Shown here: positions 4,567 through 62,026 of the stretch, piece by piece
Layout: each line of letters starts with the position of its first letter
Numbering within the stretch: the first letter of the stretch is position 1
NCBI GenBank assembly: GCA_041663185.1
Contig: JBAZQY010000001.1
Coordinates: 117,298-181,297, forward strand
Source of the DNA: Minisyncoccota bacterium
GTDB lineage: Bacteria; Patescibacteriota; Minisyncoccia; Phycocordibacterales; UBA9973
Reading direction: 5' to 3'
Length of the DNA: 64,000 nt
Notes under the pieces: model-generated
What the model was told of the DNA's origin: nothing
What the model saw: only the letters and a program-made list of their open reading frames with translations
The model's database searches: none
Position numbers and translations under genes: made by a program

Positions 4567-5649
4567 TTAAAACATTTGCTCTAATGATTTAGGATTAATA
4601 GAAAATTCATAAGCACTCTCGAGACTTATTTCTCCCCTCTGCACAAGATCAATCAGACATCGGTTCATATCAACCATCCCTTCATGGGACGAAGTTTCAA
4701 TGACGACATCGATCTCATGGGTTCTTTTTTCACGAATTAAATTGGCAATCGCTTTGTTATTGATCAAAAGTTCATAAGCGGGAATACGCCCACCGGCAAT
4801 CCGCGGAATTAAACGTTGCGAGAATATTCCAAGCAAACTTGAAGCGAGCTGTAAACGAATCTGGCCTTGTTGTTCGGCGGGGAATGAGTCGATAATACGA
4901 TCAATAGTTTGTGAAGCATTGTTGGTATGCAGAGTTGAAAGGACCAAGTGCCCCGTCTCAGCAGCTGTCACCGCAGCGGCGATGGTTGATGGATCACGCA
5001 TTTCTCCAATTAAAATAACATTGGCATCTTCACGGAAAGTTGACTTCAGAGCTTTCAAAAAATCATCCGTATCAATACCAATTTCACGTTGATTGATGAT
5101 TGATTTGTCGGGCTGATAGATGAATTCAATAGGATCTTCGATCGTCATAATGTGTGCTGCGGTTTGTGTATTGATCATATTAATCATCGTAGAGAGGGTT
5201 GTTGATTTACCTTGTCCGACTGGCCCAACAACAAGAAAGAATCCTTGTTTTTTCATAGTGAAATCTTTAAGGATCATCGGTAAATTTAATTCTTCAAATG
5301 ATTTAGCTTTAGGAATTAGCCGGATAGCGATGCAGACGAGCCCACGCTGAAAGAAAGCATTGCCTCGGAGTTGAACTTGACCATCTTTCAAATTACTCGA
5401 GAAATCAACATCCTTGTTTTCGATAAATTTCTTGACTCTTTCGCTGCCAATCAATTCCTCTAAAAGACCAAGCACATCATCTTCAGTCATAACTTTATGG
5501 TTAACCAAAGAGATAAGTTGGCCATTTACTCGGATGTATGGTTTGCGCCCGATACCAAGATGCAAATCTGAGCCATCTTCATTGATCAGGTTTTCAATTA
5601 ATTCATTGAGTAATTTTTTATATTCCATATTAGTTTTTGTGTGCGTCAC
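4567..5649 (-). CDS. pilT: Twitching-motility retraction ATPase PilT
   Basis: Walker A GPVGQGKST. The PilT-type motifs IEDPIE and ...GGRIPAYELLINN... are present. Confidence 0.8.
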   Translation of the reverse strand: MTHTKTNMEYKKLLNELIENLINEDGSDLHLGIGRKPYIRVNGQLISLVNHKVMTEDDVLGLLEELIGSERVKKFIENKDVDFSSNLKDGQVQLRGNAFFQRGLVCIAIRLIPKAKSFEELNLPMILKDFTMKKQGFFLVVGPVGQGKSTTLSTMINMINTQTAAHIMTIEDPIEFIYQPDKSIINQREIGIDTDDFLKALKSTFREDANVILIGEMRDPSTIAAAVTAAETGHLVLSTLHTNNASQTIDRIIDSFPAEQQGQIRLQLASSLLGIFSQRLIPRIAGGRIPAYELLINNKAIANLIREKRTHEIDVVIETSSHEGMVDMNRCLIDLVQRGEISLESAYEFSINPKSLEQMF

Positions 5650-11597: not shown

Positions 11598-11629
11598 GCA
11601 TGAAAATTTTTAATTAAAAATTTTCATGC
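11598..11629. promoter_or_regulatory. 32-nt perfect AT-rich palindrome (candidate operator or terminator)
   Basis: gcatgaaaatttttaa|ttaaaaattttcatgc lies between the comFC stop and the ATP-grasp gene start. tattatac follows it. Confidence 0.4.
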
Positions 11630-21653: not shown

Positions 21654-21657
21654 ATTG

Positions 21658-21731
21658 TCCGCCTGCTACGATTCGAACGTAGGACCCTCGAGGTATAAGC
21701 TCGATGCTCTAACCAACTGAGCTACAGGCGG
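21658..21731 (-). tRNA. tRNA-Ile with anticodon UAU (AUA decoder)
   Basis: Acceptor CCGCCTG/CAGGCGG, D-arm GCTCAGTTGGTTAGAGC, anticodon arm TCGAG-CTTATAC-CTCGA, and T-arm CTACG-TTCGAAT-CGTAG. Confidence 0.75.
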
Positions 21732-26116: not shown

Positions 26117-26416
26117 ATGCTACTCTTAAAGAAACTTAAAAAAATGGGAACACTGGAACCACTTAGTAGACGCACTCGCCTACTCTGGATGTATAATACT
26201 CTTATTCATCCACACCGTATCAAAATAATAATCGTATGTTTTGATTCTCGTGATAAAGCACTATATCCCTGTCATTTATCTCGTGACCAGGATGTTGAGA
26301 AAAAAATAAACAATATTTCAATCGAAACTCCAAATGTAATCATCATTGAGGTTATTGATTTGGATAAAGAACCGTTTGATGTATTCGATATGTTCGAGCT
26401 TGAAAATTTTTACTAG
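26117..26416 (+). CDS. Hypothetical protein
   Basis: 99-aa ORF followed by a bidirectional hairpin at ~26443-26480. Confidence 0.35.
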   Translation: MLLLKKLKKMGTLEPLSRRTRLLWMYNTLIHPHRIKIIIVCFDSRDKALYPCHLSRDQDVEKKINNISIETPNVIIIEVIDLDKEPFDVFDMFELENFY

Positions 26417-26510
26417 TAAAAATTTTCAAGCTCTTTTTTTATTACCAAAATTAAAAATTCCCACACCGAGTGTAGGAATTTTTAATTAAATAAATCTTTG
26501 TATTAAACAA

Positions 26511-50976: not shown

Positions 50977-51018
50977 ATGTGTAACACTTGCAGACGGCCG
51001 TCTGCAAGTGTTACACAT
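50977..51018. promoter_or_regulatory. 42-nt perfect GC-containing palindrome upstream of dgkA
   Basis: atgtgtaacacttgcagacgg|ccgtctgcaagtgttacacat (symmetric about 50997/50998), 36 nt upstream of the dgkA ATG. Confidence 0.6.
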
Positions 51019-55553: not shown

Positions 55554-58500
55554 TTAGTTCTCAATTATTATTGGATTAATAACTGTGATTTTTTGAGTAT
55601 CCTGAGCCTGAGCTAATGATCCTCCATCTGTACAAGTAATCGTATAAGTCGTCGTTGTTAATGGGAAAACTGTCGTACTTCCAGAAGTTGCTCCACCGGT
55701 TTCAAATACATCACCAGTACAAGATGTTGCTCCGGTTGAAGTCCAGACAAGATCTGATGATTTACCTTTGAAGATAATTGGCTTAGTTGCCGAAAGATCG
55801 ACAGTCACCGCTCCTCCACCACCAGAACATGCTTGTGTATTACATATTTGAGTCATTTCAGCTGGAGGAGGACAATCTGCTCCTCCATTTTGAGGTACTG
55901 GATTTGTACATGTTCTTATACATGTTTGAGTGCCTCCACCACAAGGAACACTACAAGCACTCCAATCTCCTGCACCACAAATACTCCAACCACCATCAAT
56001 TGGTATCACTGCACATTTTGCTCCATCCCAATCTGTCCCCAAAACACACGCTGTAGTTACATTCGTTTGTGCTAATAGAATCTCACTATTATAAAGGAAG
56101 AAATTAACACCCAAATCATTATGAGGTACAGTAAATGATTGAGAACCATTATTTCCATTGACTGGACTTGGAATACCTGTAGGACTAGTAACGGCAGATG
56201 TCCCAATAGGGTTTATCGTTGTCCAGGTTAGAGTTTGAGTACAGCTAGTACCATTCAAAGGAATAAAACAAGTAGGGTTAAAAGGCAGAAGTGTTCCAGA
56301 CATATCATTACTTACTGTTATTGTCGTCCACTCACCACTACAATTGTTTAATTCATTTGATTCTGGAATATCTCCAGTATCTATTTGTGAACTCTTGTCA
56401 GCACACACTCGCATATAATATGTCCCCACATTAAATGTAAATGCTCGCGAAGTAGTAGCTGATGCTCCTTGAGCAAGAGCATTCATTTCGGGAATAACTG
56501 GATAATCTGTCACTATTCCATTGCCATTAGGTAATGTTGATAATTGAAATAGATTAGTAAATTTATTCACAGTTGAAGCATTACCTTGATTAGTAATAGT
56601 TGAAGAAAATAATGTAGATACCCCAGGAGATACTGTTGTAGGAGTAGGAGAAGAGGCGATCAGGTCTGGTCCTGACATAGTTCCAGGGACTGTAATCATT
56701 GTCCATTCTCCACAGTTATTACTTTCGCTTGATTCCCCTACAACCCCATAATTAGATGCTGAGTCTTTATCGGCACATACACGCATATAATATATTCCTG
56801 CTTGAGTGAATTTATAATTTTTAGTCAAGACACGTGTCTCTCCACTTGCAAGTGCAATTGTCGCAATTACCCCTACGTCATCAGGGGCATTAAATCCACT
56901 TGGACTATTAGTCATTTGAACTAAGTTTTTAAAACCTATAACTGTTCCTGCTGTTCCAATATTTGATATCGTCACACTAAATGGAGTGTCAACTCCAACT
57001 AGCGCTGTTGTTGGTGTAATAGACGAAGTAATAAGATCAGGTAATGAACCCCCTACCGTGATAGATGTCCAGCCACTACAATTATTTCCTTCATTTGATT
57101 CAATTGTAATAGTTCCAGGATTATTAGGAGGCATGTCTGCACAAGCCTGGATGTCATAGGTTCCTGCTAGAGAGAAAGTAATAGCACGTGATGTAACAGC
57201 TGTTGCTCCTGGACCAAGAGGTGACATTGGAGCACCTAAAACTGGGTAATCAACTACTACTCCAATACTATTTCTTGTCTGAAATTTATTTGCAAAACTT
57301 CCTCCAGTTGAAGCAATACCCCGATTTGTAATAGTTGAATAAAACGTTGTGGAAACTCCTGTTTGGGCGACAGTTGGAATAGGCGTAGAGGCAATAAGAT
57401 CTGGTTGTCCTCCAAATAACGCAACGGTAATGGCAGTCCAAGGACTACAATTATTATTTTCATTATATTCGTTAGTAATAGTTCCAGGATTATCTGGTGG
57501 AAGGTCAGCACATACTCGCATATAATATGTACCAGCAGTATTAAATGTAATTGATTTTGAAGTAGGAGTTGAAGATCCCGGACCAAGAGCAGACATTAGG
57601 GGACTTACATTCACCGGATAATTAATCAAACCAAGAGGATTATTGTCACCATCAAATCCCGTTGCTGTCTGGAACAAATTACTAAATCCCGAACCAGTAG
57701 ATCCACCACCTTGATTAGTAATAGTTGATGAATAAGTTTTTGCTATATTAGGAAGCGCCATTGTTGGAGAGGGAGCAGAAGCAACAAGATCTGGAGGACC
57801 AACTGGAGAAGTTACTGTGATCATTATCCATGGACTACTACAATTATTTCCTTCATTTGATTCTGGCTCTGAGCCATTCATTGACATATTTTTATCAGCA
57901 CAAACACGCATATAATATGCCCCGGCTGAAAAGTTAATAGATCTTTGGGTAGTTGTTGATGCTCCTGAAGCAAGAATTGATGTTGAAGAAGTCACATAAT
58001 TTACTACTCCTTCAGGACCATTATCACCAATACTTGTAGCTGTTTGAAATACATTTGTAAAAGTTGACAAAGTAGAAGCATTCCCTTGATTAGTGATGGT
58101 TGAATAAAACGTCGTGGTTCCTGGGCTTGCAGTTGTAGGAGTGGGAGTTGAAGCAATCAAATCTGGTAATGAACCAGATGCGACTGTGATTGTTGTCCAA
58201 CTACTACAATTATTTCCTTCGTCTGATTCATTATCAATAGTTCCAGGACTAACAGGAGGGAGATCGGCACAGACTCGCATACCATATTCTCCTGCTGTAT
58301 TAAATTTTATTGATTTTGAGGTTGCATTCGATTCTCCTCCAAGCAAGATATCCATATTAGGAGAAACGGCATAATCTGTTATAGTTCCTTCTCCGTTTGG
58401 TAATGTTGAAGTCTGGAATTTATTTGCAAATGATCTCTCAGTTGAGCCTTGTCCCTGGTTAGTAATCACAGCTGAGAAAGTTTTATACACTCCCGGAACA

Positions 58501-59717
58501 GCCGTTGTTGGATTTGGGGCAGAAGCGATAAGATCAGCGACGGTTGCAGTACATTTTGCTCCATCCCAACTACTCCCCGTAGCACAATTCAAAGTAATCG
58601 TCTGACTTGCAAGATCATTCGAGGCATAAGTTGGATTGTTTAGTGTATTATTTTGTCCATCAACTCTATTTTTAGAAATTAAAGTTCCTGTTCCGCTAGT
58701 TGCTCCTAGTGGAATTACACCAATTCCAGAAAGAGTTACGAGACTAGAGTTTCCTGAGGTTCCAACAGTACTATTATTACCGTTCCAAACAAAAGTATTG
58801 TAATTATCTTTCGGACTAGTTGTTGTCCAATTCATAGAAATCTGACAACTATTGCCATTAGCTGGAATTATACAAGAAGATGATCCAGCCGGAACCAGAG
58901 TTCCAGATTGTCCTTGAACATTTTCTGTGGAACTTGAAAAAATAGGATTTGATATATCAGGACCACATTTTAATTGGAAAAGGTTTGTATCGTTCTGGTT
59001 TAGAACATCTATATTTTGATTAAAAACAAAAGACGAAAAAGGAAGAAGGGCTTCCGTTGCACCTGAAGGAAGCACTTTAAATGCTGTAGTTCCACTATTT
59101 TTCAATACACAACTATCTCCTGTAGGGAAATCCCATGCAGTAACAGTCAAATATGCTGTCCCTATACCAGAGGTGTTAGAATCATTCTTCTTTACTATAT
59201 TTTTAATTCGAGTTTGATCTTTTGAAAGAGAAACTGCTGCTACCAAAACCGTAGCTTCTCCAGAAATTGAGCCGTTGGAGCCAGTACAAACTATAGGGTA
59301 AGAAGTGTGTTCTGTAGGGCTCACAGAAATACTTCCTCCTGTCGCAGTAGAACCGAGTACTCCCGTATCACAACTATCAGCACCAACTGATGACCAAGTA
59401 ATAGTTGAATTTTGTCCAGGATATATATATGCCGGGTTTGCAGTAACATTAATATCCATTCCTTCACCCCCGCCACCATTATTATCACCTATCCATTGGC
59501 ACCATGTTGCTTTGTTTAAATGGTAATATGGGTCTTGGTCACATTCAATGTCTGTATGGCGATTTGTGCAATGTTCATTTTCCTGATGAAATGGTTCCGT
59601 GTCTGGAACAGTATAATCAACAGTACAATATCCTTCTGCATTAACAATCGAACTTGAACTCAAAAAAATAGTAAAAATAAAGACAAACAATAAAAGAGAA
59701 TATTTAAATAGTTTCAT
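55554..59717 (-). CDS. Giant (1387 aa) secreted/surface protein with ~6 tandem CARDB-like repeats and a thrombospondin-type-1-like (TSP1) Cys module
   Basis: Signal peptide MKLFKYSLLLFVFIFTIFLSSSSIVNA. The ~110-aa repeats each have PDLIAS.P.PT...G....F...ITN.G.A and MRVCAD....E.NE.NNCS.WT.ITV. The segment WSICGAGDWSACSVPCGGGTQTCIRTC matches the TSP1 pattern. Confidence 0.6.
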   Translation of the reverse strand: MKLFKYSLLLFVFIFTIFLSSSSIVNAEGYCTVDYTVPDTEPFHQENEHCTNRHTDIECDQDPYYHLNKATWCQWIGDNNGGGGEGMDINVTANPAYIYPGQNSTITWSSVGADSCDTGVLGSTATGGSISVSPTEHTSYPIVCTGSNGSISGEATVLVAAVSLSKDQTRIKNIVKKNDSNTSGIGTAYLTVTAWDFPTGDSCVLKNSGTTAFKVLPSGATEALLPFSSFVFNQNIDVLNQNDTNLFQLKCGPDISNPIFSSSTENVQGQSGTLVPAGSSSCIIPANGNSCQISMNWTTTSPKDNYNTFVWNGNNSTVGTSGNSSLVTLSGIGVIPLGATSGTGTLISKNRVDGQNNTLNNPTYASNDLASQTITLNCATGSSWDGAKCTATVADLIASAPNPTTAVPGVYKTFSAVITNQGQGSTERSFANKFQTSTLPNGEGTITDYAVSPNMDILLGGESNATSKSIKFNTAGEYGMRVCADLPPVSPGTIDNESDEGNNCSSWTTITVASGSLPDLIASTPTPTTASPGTTTFYSTITNQGNASTLSTFTNVFQTATSIGDNGPEGVVNYVTSSTSILASGASTTTQRSINFSAGAYYMRVCADKNMSMNGSEPESNEGNNCSSPWIMITVTSPVGPPDLVASAPSPTMALPNIAKTYSSTITNQGGGSTGSGFSNLFQTATGFDGDNNPLGLINYPVNVSPLMSALGPGSSTPTSKSITFNTAGTYYMRVCADLPPDNPGTITNEYNENNNCSPWTAITVALFGGQPDLIASTPIPTVAQTGVSTTFYSTITNRGIASTGGSFANKFQTRNSIGVVVDYPVLGAPMSPLGPGATAVTSRAITFSLAGTYDIQACADMPPNNPGTITIESNEGNNCSGWTSITVGGSLPDLITSSITPTTALVGVDTPFSVTISNIGTAGTVIGFKNLVQMTNSPSGFNAPDDVGVIATIALASGETRVLTKNYKFTQAGIYYMRVCADKDSASNYGVVGESSESNNCGEWTMITVPGTMSGPDLIASSPTPTTVSPGVSTLFSSTITNQGNASTVNKFTNLFQLSTLPNGNGIVTDYPVIPEMNALAQGASATTSRAFTFNVGTYYMRVCADKSSQIDTGDIPESNELNNCSGEWTTITVSNDMSGTLLPFNPTCFIPLNGTSCTQTLTWTTINPIGTSAVTSPTGIPSPVNGNNGSQSFTVPHNDLGVNFFLYNSEILLAQTNVTTACVLGTDWDGAKCAVIPIDGGWSICGAGDWSACSVPCGGGTQTCIRTCTNPVPQNGGADCPPPAEMTQICNTQACSGGGGAVTVDLSATKPIIFKGKSSDLVWTSTGATSCTGDVFETGGATSGSTTVFPLTTTTYTITCTDGGSLAQAQDTQKITVINPIIIEN

Positions 59718-59900: not shown

Positions 59901-60863
59901 CTAATTATGGATACGTATAAATGTTTCCCTTGTCATCAGTTGAGCCCCCAGCGGATGATATTGCCAGACCAAAGTATCTGAAGAAAGAGAAACAATTTCA
60001 CGAGTATCAATGTTACCATTGTTACTAAGAATCAATGTGTTTCCTTCTAAAGACCAATTGAATTCGGCCATTGTGGGTTCAGTACCACATTTAATTTCTC
60101 CAAAATTCGCTATCATTCTTGAATCCGGACAATATGTAGTTGTGTCATCAGAAAAACAAAGTCTCGGTTCTCCAGGCACCCATTCGTTCCCAGGAGGAAC
60201 CTCGAAATATATTGCCGATATTCCTCCCCATGAGCCCATTTTGGAAGAGATAGTATCAGCTCTTGTTGGAGCATTAACTGTGATGGAAACACTACATCTC
60301 CCTTCTTCAACACCATTATTATAACCAATGGCATCATAGGTTTTGGAAGCATCCAAAAGTGGTGTCTCAATGGTATCACTGGAAGAACTGTTCCAGTTCC
60401 AACCCTCTATGTTGGTCCAAATGGAGTCACAACCATAACTTTCGATTGTGATTGAAGTAGCTGTCCGCCAGGGAATCTGAGTACTTGAAGCACTCATCTT
60501 AAGTGGCAGGTGGCCAAACACGTAGCATATTTTTTCTACACTTATCGGGATACGTTCGTCCCAATAAAATGTAATCGTGACGGAGCTCATACCCTCTTCT
60601 GCCATAATGACAGTGGTGGTATCTTGTAACGGGTCTTTGTCGAATATTGTATCTCCGGTGGGGAATACAACGCTCACCCTGTCAGCACCGTTTGATGAGA
60701 ATGGGATACTAATCACTTTTCCTACCATTCCATGCACCTGGCTGGGAACGTTAGTGATTTTATATTTTTGTGTATCTTCATTCGGAGGACTTTCTTTCTC
60801 GCATCCTGTTAAAAACCACAGGGAAAGAGAAAAGACGATTATCAGAAAAGTCTTGGTCTTCAT
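59901..60863 (-). CDS. Hypothetical lipoprotein
   Basis: Lipobox ...LWFLTGC at residues 17-21. GC appears higher (low-to-mid 40s %) than the surroundings. Confidence 0.5.
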   Translation of the reverse strand: MKTKTFLIIVFSLSLWFLTGCEKESPPNEDTQKYKITNVPSQVHGMVGKVISIPFSSNGADRVSVVFPTGDTIFDKDPLQDTTTVIMAEEGMSSVTITFYWDERIPISVEKICYVFGHLPLKMSASSTQIPWRTATSITIESYGCDSIWTNIEGWNWNSSSSDTIETPLLDASKTYDAIGYNNGVEEGRCSVSITVNAPTRADTISSKMGSWGGISAIYFEVPPGNEWVPGEPRLCFSDDTTTYCPDSRMIANFGEIKCGTEPTMAEFNWSLEGNTLILSNNGNIDTREIVSLSSDTLVWQYHPLGAQLMTRETFIRIHN

Positions 60864-61031
60864 ATTGTTCAGTTTTTTGTTTTTTTGTGAATAGGTTAAT
60901 TTATATTTATCCCGACAAACCCTTATTTCTCAAGATAAATATAAATTAACCCGAACAAAGTACTTACCCATATTATCCTACTTTACTAGAGGTTTTGTCA
61001 AGGAGTTATCCCCATTTTATCCCCACCCACA

Positions 61032-61058
61032 ATATAGCGAAGTCCGACTTCACTATAT
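61032..61058. repeat. REP-like palindrome immediately 3' of the RAYT-like gene
   Basis: atatagcGAAGTC-c-GACTTCactatat. Confidence 0.6.
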
Positions 61059-61790
61059 CTATTCCATATCTAAAATAACCTCTTGTGGTAAATTTTCATT
61101 ATTTTTTAAATTAAATGATTCAATCCAATTTAAAATTTCCTTTTTCTGTTTTTCTTCACCCCCTAATCTATGTAATAAAAAATCTTTTTTAATTATCGAT
61201 GGAAAATTTTTTTGACCAACATAGTCCAAATAACTGCTCCATCTGTATTTATTCAAAAAATCAATAGCTTTTTCGAGATCATTAATTTTTCCCTCTCTCC
61301 ACTCTTTAAATTTATAATCAAGCGGATTTAAGTGGATATATATCGGTAAATACATCAAATGTGAATCTTTTTTTAGATTGACTGATTTAAATTTCCCCTG
61401 AAAAAGTGCCCCAGTTCTTTCATATTTTTTATTAAAATAATTTGTATATCCAGTTCCTAATTTCCGCATGAATTCTGTAATTCCATTTTCTGTCTTTTGT
61501 CTAACCATCAAATGAAAATGATTATCCATCAAACAATAAGCCAAAATCTCCACCAATACTTCCCTAGGTTTTCTCGTAATATTAGGAAGTCCGACTTCCT
61601 TAAGTTTATTATTTTTTGACTTGAGGTATAAAGCTAAGTTAATTGTTGGGTTCTTATCATTAAACTCAAATAAATCGTGAACGAAGCGAAATCTATCATC
61701 GTCATCCATGAAAATATTGCGTTTATCTACACCTCTATTATAAATATGATAGATTTCTCCAAAAACTAAATGTGTTTTTCTTAATGACAT
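61059..61790 (-). mobile_element. RAYT-like Y1/HUH transposase-like protein (REP-associated tyrosine transposase family)
   Basis: YHIYNRG, DDDDRFRF, HUH motif YCLMDNHFHLMV, then ...GTGYTNYFNKKYERTGALFQGKFKS...IYIHLNP, matching the family signature. An internal REP-like palindrome lies at 61582..61603. Confidence 0.6.
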
Positions 61791-61816
61791 AATTGTATTA
61801 TATCACCAAAAACAAA

Positions 61817-61841
61817 CTATAGGAAGTCGGACTTCCTATAG
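61817..61841. repeat. REP-like perfect palindrome immediately 5' of the RAYT-like gene
   Basis: ctataGGAAGTC-g-GACTTCCtatag. Confidence 0.65.
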
Positions 61842-61887
61842 TTTTAAATTTGACCGCGAAGACACTTTATAGTAGTATTTATTTTGT

Positions 61888-61910
61888 AAGTCCGTTCTCG
61901 AACCGGACTT
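61888..61910. repeat. REP-like hairpin followed by a T-tract
   Basis: AAGTCCG-ttctcgaac-CGGACTT followed by ttatttttat. agtagtat lies just upstream. Confidence 0.5.
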
Positions 61911-62026
61911 TTATTTTTATCAGCCCTCGCACAGAGCCACGGCTAGATGAAAGGAAAATTATAATTTAATAAAAAGGTATTCGGATTTTAGCTAGCACCT
62001 AGAAACTGGAACCTAGAAACTAATCT

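Follow-up and report, generated by a model that had tools for sequence, protein, structure and literature searches.

The closest described relatives of the system treated here are REPtrons, on which Nunvar in 2010 and Ton-Hoang in 2012 reportedly published, and among which RayT of Escherichia coli (PDB 4er8) is counted. A REPtron is a gene for a REP-associated tyrosine transposase (RAYT, or TnpA-REP) with flanking repetitive extragenic palindromic (REP) sequences or bacterial interspersed mosaic elements (BIMEs) (Messing 2012, PMC3479197; Corneloup 2021, PMC8266576; Bertels 2017, PMC5581495). The TnpA transposases of IS200/IS605 insertion sequences (ISs) have the same Y1 fold and recognize subterminal hairpins in single-stranded DNA, and in IS200 such hairpins also restrain expression. 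Palindromic repeats are further known to lie in frame inside coding genes, where they are translated as a tolerated extra peptide (Di Nocera 2013, PMC3733652), with the Rickettsia palindromic elements as another in-frame example in the part of that paper that cites them. Here we describe a locus in the 61 kb region of a 64,000-nt stretch of DNA (the window, in which position 1 is the first letter) from an ultra-small bacterium of the candidate phyla radiation (CPR, Patescibacteria). A gene for a predicted RAYT-like Y1/HUH nuclease carries three copies of one palindrome at this locus, one over its predicted promoter, one in frame within its open reading frame (ORF), and one abutting its stop codon. 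The features of the locus are listed below.

61059..61790, minus strand: gene for the predicted RAYT-like Y1/HUH nuclease, 243 aa, with the motifs NHFHLM and YFNKKYERTGALFQGKFKS
61814..61844, no strand: 5' palindrome copy, AAACTATAGGAAGTC-S-GACTTCCTATAGTTT, 31 nt, perfect
61582..61602, no strand: intragenic palindrome copy, 21 nt with one mismatch; perfect over 17 nt at 61584-61600, AGGAAGTC-S-GACTTCCT
61032..61058, no strand: 3' palindrome copy, ATATAGTGAAGTC-S-GACTTCGCTATAT on the gene strand, 27 nt with one T.G mismatch
61797..61805, minus strand: extended -10 box TGATATAAT of the inferred promoter, ending 6 nt before the ATG

The ORF with its two motifs, the three palindromes, and a further hairpin at 61888-61910 had all been reported in the initial annotation of this DNA, and we recovered each of them in place. 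Exactly three copies of the GAAGTCNGACTTC core (GAAGTC-N-GACTTC) lie in the window, at 61039, 61586, and 61823, where dinucleotide-preserving shuffles give an expectation of 0.07 copies and three copies were reached in 0 of 100 shuffles; the remaining 62.8 kb of the window contain no further copy. The 5' copy, centred 39 nt upstream of the ATG, forms a DNA hairpin of -12.1 kcal/mol (z = -8.6). The intragenic copy is translated in frame as K-E-V-G-L-P (E65-P69). The 3' copy begins right after the stop codon, with a DNA hairpin of -7.6 kcal/mol (z = -6.2), and was rejected as a canonical intrinsic terminator because no T-run lies behind it. Searches of the locus against Rfam, with gathering or with E <= 1 thresholds, returned nothing except a chance miRNA match on a neighbouring inverted repeat.

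The palindromes are gene-specific cognate repeats, which is supported by their covariation across 82 loci and between paralogs. The protein family is very large, with more than 8,000 clusters at 90% identity (E <= 1e-5) and 1,140 clusters at 50% identity (E <= 1e-30), and nearly all members are about 235 aa long and come from metagenome-assembled genomes (MAGs) of Patescibacteria. We compared 80 loci from GTDB species representatives together with the window and one close relative. In most of these loci strong palindromes stand at three places: 5' of the ATG, in an ORF loop that precedes the HUH motif by about 25 codons, and at the stop codon or shortly behind it; the 3' copies in most relatives overlap the stop codon or begin within about 20 nt of it, with a few lying further downstream. 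Long stretches of exact identity link the 5' and the 3' copy in most loci. The palindrome sequence varies by lineage while the copies inside each locus agree, as in L027 (TATTGAAGGTAACCTTCAATA), L031 (AATATTCGGACTTGCGAAGTCCGAATATT), L045 (TATTGCAACCCGGTTGCAATA), L047 (TTACGAGGCTAAGCCTCGTAA), L052 (AATGAGAGACGTCCGACGTCTCTCATT), and L079 (TTGGGACTTCGTAAGTCCCAA). To score the covariation, the 108-nt loop region was compared with the 200-nt flanks of the same locus for their longest exact match, with a cut at >=13 nt. Such a match is present in 71 of the 82 loci with a median length of 21 nt, and control ORF segments reach the cut in 0 of 82 and 1 of 80 cases. For the 47 loci without the GAAGTC core, the internal region matched the flanks of other loci at this length in 65 of 2,162 comparisons (3%).

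Paralogs from one and the same MAG (L018/L049, L024/L061, L048/L060, and L019/L071), which are taken to be roughly half identical on account of comparable identities (47-61%) to the window protein, carry differing palindromes, as do the paralogous genes of REPtrons. Among orthologs that share the neighbouring gene nusA, the outer arms vary from genome to genome and agree within each locus. In L014 and L015, ATTGTTGGAAGTC... is found in all three copies, and the loop peptide becomes KLLEVGLPTI. The idea that the palindromes are cognate to the gene, for which the initial annotation had proposed a comparison with related genomes, is therefore borne out by the comparison. When 170 copies were oriented and aligned, they gave the symmetric consensus AAAtyTnnGGAAGTC-S-GACTTCCnnArATTT with perfect stems. 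Two further measures were set aside: stem-pair covariation (93.7% paired cells, double changes in 14 of 14 pairs) is partly circular, perfect palindromes having been chosen, and is not relied on; and the association of protein similarity with palindrome class is weak and based on crude labels (nearest neighbour of the same class in 28 of 77 cases versus 17 +/- 4 after shuffling), and is not used.

Some paralogs have features of their own. Those of MAG JBAYVZ01 (L036 and L077) are mosaics in which 100% identical blocks of 85-110 nt stand between sequence of 76-87% identity, and both contigs stop inside the Y1 gene at the same point. The mosaic could reflect gene conversion between paralogs or a mixture of strains; its identity does not break at the palindrome, and we draw no conclusion on recombination from it. 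Adjoining the main gene of L075, at 4612-5580 on the minus strand, is a distant Y1 paralog of 323 aa that has lost the first HUH histidine (MPAFIHL), has a long C-terminal extension with a hydrophobic stretch resembling a membrane helix, and is accompanied by no palindrome; it may be an inactivated derivative.

The intragenic copy is constrained at the level of the nucleotides and not of the peptide. Where the loop peptide is EV[G/R]L (37 loci), it is encoded by GAA in 37 of 37, GTC in 33 of 37, GGA in 32 of 32, and CTT in 37 of 37, against background frequencies of 0.146 for GTC, 0.378 for GGA, and 0.21 for CTT (joint background probability 0.008). The sole GTG exception, in L019, is mirrored by the same change in the flanking copies. 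E65, V66, G67, and L68 are invariant among close relatives; the same core, otherwise read as EVGL or EVRL, is translated in another frame as KSDF in L037, L051, and L081. The loop peptides of other lineages (EAKPRK, DIGRPYI, VIARPYI, SDLRSPN) are unrelated to it and track their own palindromes. The internal copy is kept at the same loop in about 87% of the loci over a span of 48-100% protein identity, and it is present even in the shortest loops (L011, L033, and L069).

The 5' copy appears to be built into the promoter of the gene, a feature that sets this locus apart from REPtrons. Because the -10 box ends 6 nt before the ATG, the Y1 mRNA is predicted to be leaderless or near-leaderless. TATAAT and the ATG are invariant columns in an alignment of seven nusA-syntenic orthologs, 21 of 60 loci have a TAnA[AT]T box that begins at -12, and in 16 loci the palindrome is centred at -39 +/- 1. 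With the palindrome centred at -39 and the box at -12, the gene-proximal arm would cover the -35 position of this leaderless promoter. A generic promoter scan did not call the promoter because it has no good -35. The 5' and internal copies are 237 bp apart, centre to centre, in the window and in many relatives.

Profile and fold searches identify the 243-aa protein as a probable Y1/HUH nuclease closest to RAYT, in agreement with the initial annotation, which had suggested the profile search. The protein matches Pfam PF01797 Y1_Tnp at 35 bits (cut-off 23, E = 1.7e-8), with residues 77-153 on profile positions 38-119 of 121. As in REPtrons, RAYT is the top-scoring curated family (NCBIfam NF047646, 35.7 bits), and the IS200 TnpA model NF033573 scores 13.2 bits, short of its cut-off of 55. 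Neither the protein nor a 22-sequence profile retrieved a relevant entry when the sequences of the PDB were searched, and a fold search was needed to connect the protein with solved structures. An AlphaFold2 (AF2) model built from 22 sequences was discarded (predicted local distance difference test, pLDDT, 54), and the model used was built from a 99-sequence alignment (pLDDT 69); its confidence is low at residues 143-153, and pLDDT is below 50 at loop residues 52-70. Among PDB structures, the 30 best Foldseek matches consist without exception of chains from Y1 transposases, namely IS608, ISDra2, IS200, and E. coli TnpA-REP 4er8; the lowest E is 3e-5.

The alignments indicate that the HUH/Tyr/Asn active site is intact and that Y151 is the catalytic tyrosine. 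H91 and H93 of the HUH motif (H91-F-H93), Y151 within PIYIHLNP, and N155 do not vary in alignments of 61 and of 99 relatives (48-85% identity). In a BLASTP alignment with E. coli RayT (rayT from NC_000913), H91/H93 align with H59/H61 (H59-M-H61), Y151 with Y115 without a gap, and N155 with N119. In the crystal structure of E. coli RayT, H59/H61 are the HUH motif, Y115 is the catalytic tyrosine, and N119 is a metal ligand (PMC3479197), and N155 is presumed to serve likewise. The predicted protein thus shares with REPtron enzymes the Y1/HUH fold, the HUH motif, the catalytic tyrosine, and an asparagine four residues later. The catalytic tyrosine had previously been read as replaced by phenylalanine (F134 in LFQGKF), which made the protein a possible inactive variant; F134 aligns with F98 (IWQPRF) of the active E. 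coli RayT, and this reading has to be given up. Identity to E. coli RayT is 17% over 92 residues, and relative to that enzyme the CPR protein has an insertion loop of about 30 aa (residues ~45-78) and a C-terminal extension of about 85 aa.

The internal copy has no counterpart in E. coli rayT or in two distant relatives. At E. coli rayT we found 37-nt REP matches between the flanks and no palindrome copy inside the ORF, and in the distant relatives L098 and L100 the hairpin arrays are confined to the flanks, without an internal copy. A second CPR subfamily of about 210 aa, 37% identical to the first and with more than 1,300 members, carries the palindrome CACTTGGCGG-N-CCGCCAAGTG, which spans -38 to -14 and contains a -35-like TTGGCG; a TAGAAT-type box and the ATG come next, and another copy stands after the stop codon. 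Intragenic copies in this subfamily occupy two loops, at +171 (LGGSTAK) and at +447 (LGGLTAK), the latter directly behind the catalytic YxNLN helix. Here, too, the copies co-vary (L103, TTGGAGGCTCAGCCTCCAA; L104, ACTTGGCGACnnGGTCGCCAAGT).

Solo palindromes exist outside the gene but are few. Beyond the gene and 250 nt on either side of it, 923 kb of flanking DNA contain 35 additional copies (core of 17 nt or longer, at most one mismatch; about 0.04 per kb), up to five of them in 12.7 kb at L011; where checked, these were mostly intergenic, with a few inside listed ORFs. The exact 23-mer TATAGGAAGTCNGACTTCCTATA was found on 10 contigs of JGI metagenomes, two with the gene and eight with a solo copy. 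The eight solo copies are almost always intergenic and often between convergent genes, and the one on L089 is preceded by an A-run and followed by a T-run. The contig L093 is syntenic with 47.8-55.5 kb of the window (71-92% identity over the aligned blocks), and its solo palindrome sits in a segment of about 700 nt that is absent from the window and also holds an unannotated ORF of 136 aa. Back-to-back doublets resembling REP doublets forming hairpins (REPINs) occur at L035, L071, and L081. REPtrons likewise have solo and doublet copies in intergenic DNA, but the dispersed copies of the CPR system are very few in comparison.

The Y1 gene is inherited vertically at an orthologous fixed position and was not recently acquired, because nusA is its divergent upstream neighbour in eight genomes, namely that of the window and seven more. 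In the seven others NusA is 90-94% identical whereas the Y1 protein is only 65-83% identical. This argues against the earlier suggestion that the block was acquired. The elevated GC of the neighbouring lipoprotein gene (59901-60863), taken as a sign of acquisition, is 41.6%, only about 1.9 standard deviations (SD) above the window mean (35.8%, SD 3.1 in 1-kb windows) and near that of nusA (39.5%); the outlier is the Y1 gene itself, whose 28.0% is the lowest in the window. The whole Y1 gene is present once in the 64 kb. Its family has only three distant matches among the 2.9 million viral contigs of IMG/VR, and phage carriage was rejected on that ground. A fixed locus with usually one copy of each type per genome is what REPtrons have as well. 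The CPR gene resembles IS200/IS605 units in its fold and in being bordered by hairpins, but, unlike them, it is not multicopy, is absent from phage contigs, is syntenic across genomes, has no tnpB partner, and has perfect instead of imperfect palindromes with an intragenic copy.

Taken together, the locus is best explained, with a probability of roughly 55%, as a REPtron-like unit of a very large clade of Patescibacteria, in which the nuclease recognizes the hairpins and the promoter copy, possibly along with the internal copy, is autoregulatory. The protein would recognize the palindromes as hairpins, either extruded as cruciforms or in single-stranded DNA, and on the promoter copy it would feed back on the leaderless transcription of the Y1 gene. 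The intragenic copy 237 bp downstream might then act as an auxiliary site or a roadblock, in the manner of the internal operators of lac and gal. Cleavage and strand transfer by the enzyme, along with hairpin-templated repair or gene conversion, would copy and homogenize the palindromes, and the same copying might occasionally seed solo palindromes. The loop peptide, KEVGLP in the window, would be a tolerated by-product of carrying the site.

Several observations weigh against this explanation. The score of 35.7 bits is below the RAYT equivalog cut-off of 80. The 170 oriented copies show neither a bulge nor, beside the palindromes, an asymmetric guide motif of the GTAG kind, and both the GTAG guide and the bulge are required for recognition by the one characterized RAYT (PMC3479197). 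The edge of the 5' palindrome ranges from -6 to -122 across the loci, so that its distance from the gene is not fixed. The window contains no dispersed copy in 62.8 kb, and mobilization is therefore rare at best. In 11 of the 82 loci (~13%) the internal match is lost while the flanking copies and the active-site residues are kept, and the intragenic copy is for this reason dispensable in some lineages. Within a locus, the copies are identical over 25-34 nt, more than binding specificity alone would maintain; the covariation could accordingly stem from copying or conversion, with no function of the internal site. Binding, cleavage, and autoregulation, finally, are steps that we infer, as is any function of the internal copy. 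The initial annotation had called the arrangement a classic pairing of RAYT and REP. What stands of this is a RAYT-like gene bracketed by its own cognate palindromes, as in REPtrons; the palindromes are not classical in being perfect, with loops of 1-3 nt (sometimes 7 nt), in having neither bulge nor GTAG-like tag, in their low copy number, and in the co-varying in-frame copy within the ORF.

For the internal copy, two explanations compete. At less than even odds, it may be a functional cis-site for its own nuclease, either as a second operator looping to the promoter copy or as a substrate of self-cleavage or conversion. Auxiliary operators within coding sequence are known from lac O2 in lacZ and gal OI in galE. 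The parallel is one of function and not of homology: in both cases a promoter site is joined by a second identical site a few hundred bp downstream in the ORF, and a DNA-binding site constrains coding sequence. Unlike in lac and gal, the regulated gene would be that of the binder itself, an HUH nuclease, the binding and looping are putative, and the sites, long perfect palindromes, undergo rapid and compensatory evolution. The other explanation, the main rival, which we consider rather doubtful, is that the internal copy is functionless: a REP-like hairpin would have hopped locally into a tolerant loop and been kept identical by gene conversion, template switching, or replacement by the enzyme, leaving the picture of a RAYT-like nuclease with cognate REP-like palindromes unchanged. 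The within-locus identity of up to 34 nt, which includes non-core arm positions that change fast between orthologs, resembles copying more than selection for binding, and the use of two loops in the second subfamily and of two reading frames suggests repeated insertion. The loop is also low in model confidence, the internal match is gone from the 11 loci that keep their catalytic residues, and in-frame REP insertions are known in unrelated genes (PMC3733652). A functionless copy is harder to reconcile with retention at the same loop in most loci, even the shortest loops, with the near absence of matches in the control ORF segments, and with the 237-bp spacing to the promoter copy that is constant in many loci. 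It also has to contend with E. coli rayT, L098, and L100, which have flanking arrays only, so that proximity alone does not yield an internal copy. In the known intragenic REPs a palindromic repeat likewise lies in frame in a coding gene at the price of an extra peptide, but the hosts are unrelated to the presumed transposase and the insertions sporadic, whereas the CPR host gene is the cognate nuclease itself, with the copy at one loop and co-varying with the flanks in a family of more than 1,000 clusters at 50% identity. The present data fit both a functional and a tolerated internal copy and cannot separate them.

Two explanations that depart further from a REPtron-like unit are unlikely. 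One is that the gene is an autonomous IS of the IS200/IS605 type, whose 5' and 3' palindromes are end hairpins and which moves as a whole by single-strand peel-and-paste. The shared fold with the TnpA of IS608, ISDra2, and IS200, the palindromes bordering the coding sequence at both ends, and the low GC of the Y1 gene (28%) would fit an IS, as would the mosaic identical blocks in two paralogs of one MAG whose contigs break inside the gene; IS200 likewise limits its own expression by hairpins, according to the part of PMC3733652 that cites this. We nevertheless regard an IS as quite improbable, given the 13 bits against the IS200 cut-off of 55, the single copy in 64 kb, the orthologous position next to nusA in eight genomes despite the divergence of the Y1 protein to 65-83%, the virtual absence of the family from viral contigs, and the existence of solo palindromes without the gene; paralogs within a genome, moreover, are about 50% identical with different palindromes and are not near-identical copies. 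The other explanation, which we find highly improbable, treats the palindromes as structural elements of RNA or DNA only (stabilizers, RNase III sites, brakes, terminators, or insulators) that would be recognized, if at all, by host factors instead of the Y1 protein. A generic scan does mark the 5' copy (T-rich tail, gene strand) and the internal copy (antisense strand) as terminator-like, solo copies often stand between convergent genes, including the one on L089 between an A-run and a T-run, and an influence of REPs on mRNA stability and on termination is known (PMC3733652). Against this, the inferred -10 box, if correct, would leave the 5' copy outside the transcript of the gene, no T-run follows the 3' copy, and the one-nucleotide loop cannot close, so that the hairpin must open to a triloop. 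The other strong palindromes of the window are mostly hairpins with an A-run, a GC stem, and a T-run whose stems are unrelated in sequence, and hence the GGAAGTC palindrome is not the general terminator of this genome. A single host factor, in addition, cannot account for two paralogs in one genome that each have their own palindrome.

The hairpin at 61888-61910 had been grouped with the palindromes. It was rejected as a REP, being a member of a separately conserved unit of promoter, hairpin, and T-run that faces nusA.

61850..61920, plus strand: candidate nusA leader element, TTGACC-17-TAGTAT (61850-61878), hairpin AAGTCCG-N9-CGGACTT, T-run

The element lies about 110 nt upstream of the nusA ATG and, with the loop sequence, stands out as the non-coding block of highest conservation among the seven nusA-syntenic orthologs; the hairpin more likely belongs to this conserved leader than to the palindrome unit. 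The hairpin is weak (-5.6 kcal/mol) and has only a 7-nt arm in common with the palindrome core. Autoregulation of NusA via leader terminators is known in other bacteria, and the 61850-61920 block may be a nusA leader attenuator.

Other features of the window were observed in passing. The lipoprotein gene (59901-60863; features at 60894-60951 and 60972-61030, minus strand) has a near-consensus promoter, TTGACA-18-GATAAT, an inverted repeat in its 5' untranslated region (26-nt arms, 88% complementary, 6-nt gap), and a direct repeat GGGGATAAAATGGGGATAAC upstream of the -35, all three conserved in the relative L001. Adjoining this lipocalin-like lipoprotein, a secreted repeat protein of 1,387 aa (55554-59717, minus strand) has weak Pfam matches to CARDB and TSP_1 (thrombospondin type-1) and is probably a cell-surface adhesin of an episymbiont-type bacterium. 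Most bacteria read AUA with a modified CAT-anticodon tRNA; the window encodes a tRNA-Ile with anticodon TAT at 21657-21731, minus strand (ARAGORN; Rfam 69 bits). Perfect palindromes at 11598-11629 (32 nt) and 26396-26433 (38 nt) have the arms TGAAAATTTTTA / TAAAAATTTTCA in common and may be a repeated operator of some regulator. A perfect palindrome of 42 nt, ATGTGTAACACTTGCAGACGG followed directly by CCGTCTGCAAGTGTTACACAT, stands at 50977-51018 near the start of a diacylglycerol-kinase gene and overlaps the 5' end of the longest listed ORF; at the syntenic place on L093 (5750-5800) there are related arms, GTGTAACA...TGTTACAC.

The feature described here is a twist on the known REP/RAYT system, in which an in-frame, co-varying cognate palindrome within the nuclease gene is new. 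Full-text literature searches that included the main RAYT/REPtron papers, with incomplete coverage, found neither a RAYT-type gene with its own cognate palindrome inside nor a description of this CPR clade. The host role of REP/RAYT and the co-evolution of the pair have been an open question since about 2010, and the finding should interest specialists in mobile DNA and domesticated transposases. A RAYT-like clade is kept in some of the smallest and most streamlined bacterial genomes, and the scarcity of dispersed repeats in the DNA examined argues for a role beyond the spreading of repeats. The in-frame co-varying copy is a natural experiment in which selection or copying at the nucleotide level overrides codon choice and even amino-acid sequence. 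The 80-odd lineage-specific pairs of protein and palindrome form a data set for the recognition code of Y1 nucleases, enzymes that serve as tools for tagging single-stranded DNA. If the internal copy is a functional cis-site, the RAYT-like gene would itself belong to its repeat population, with a coding sequence shaped by the DNA specificity of its product. This would be a general and previously unnoticed design in CPR bacteria, and it would offer a tractable handle on the host role of RAYT-type domesticated transposases.

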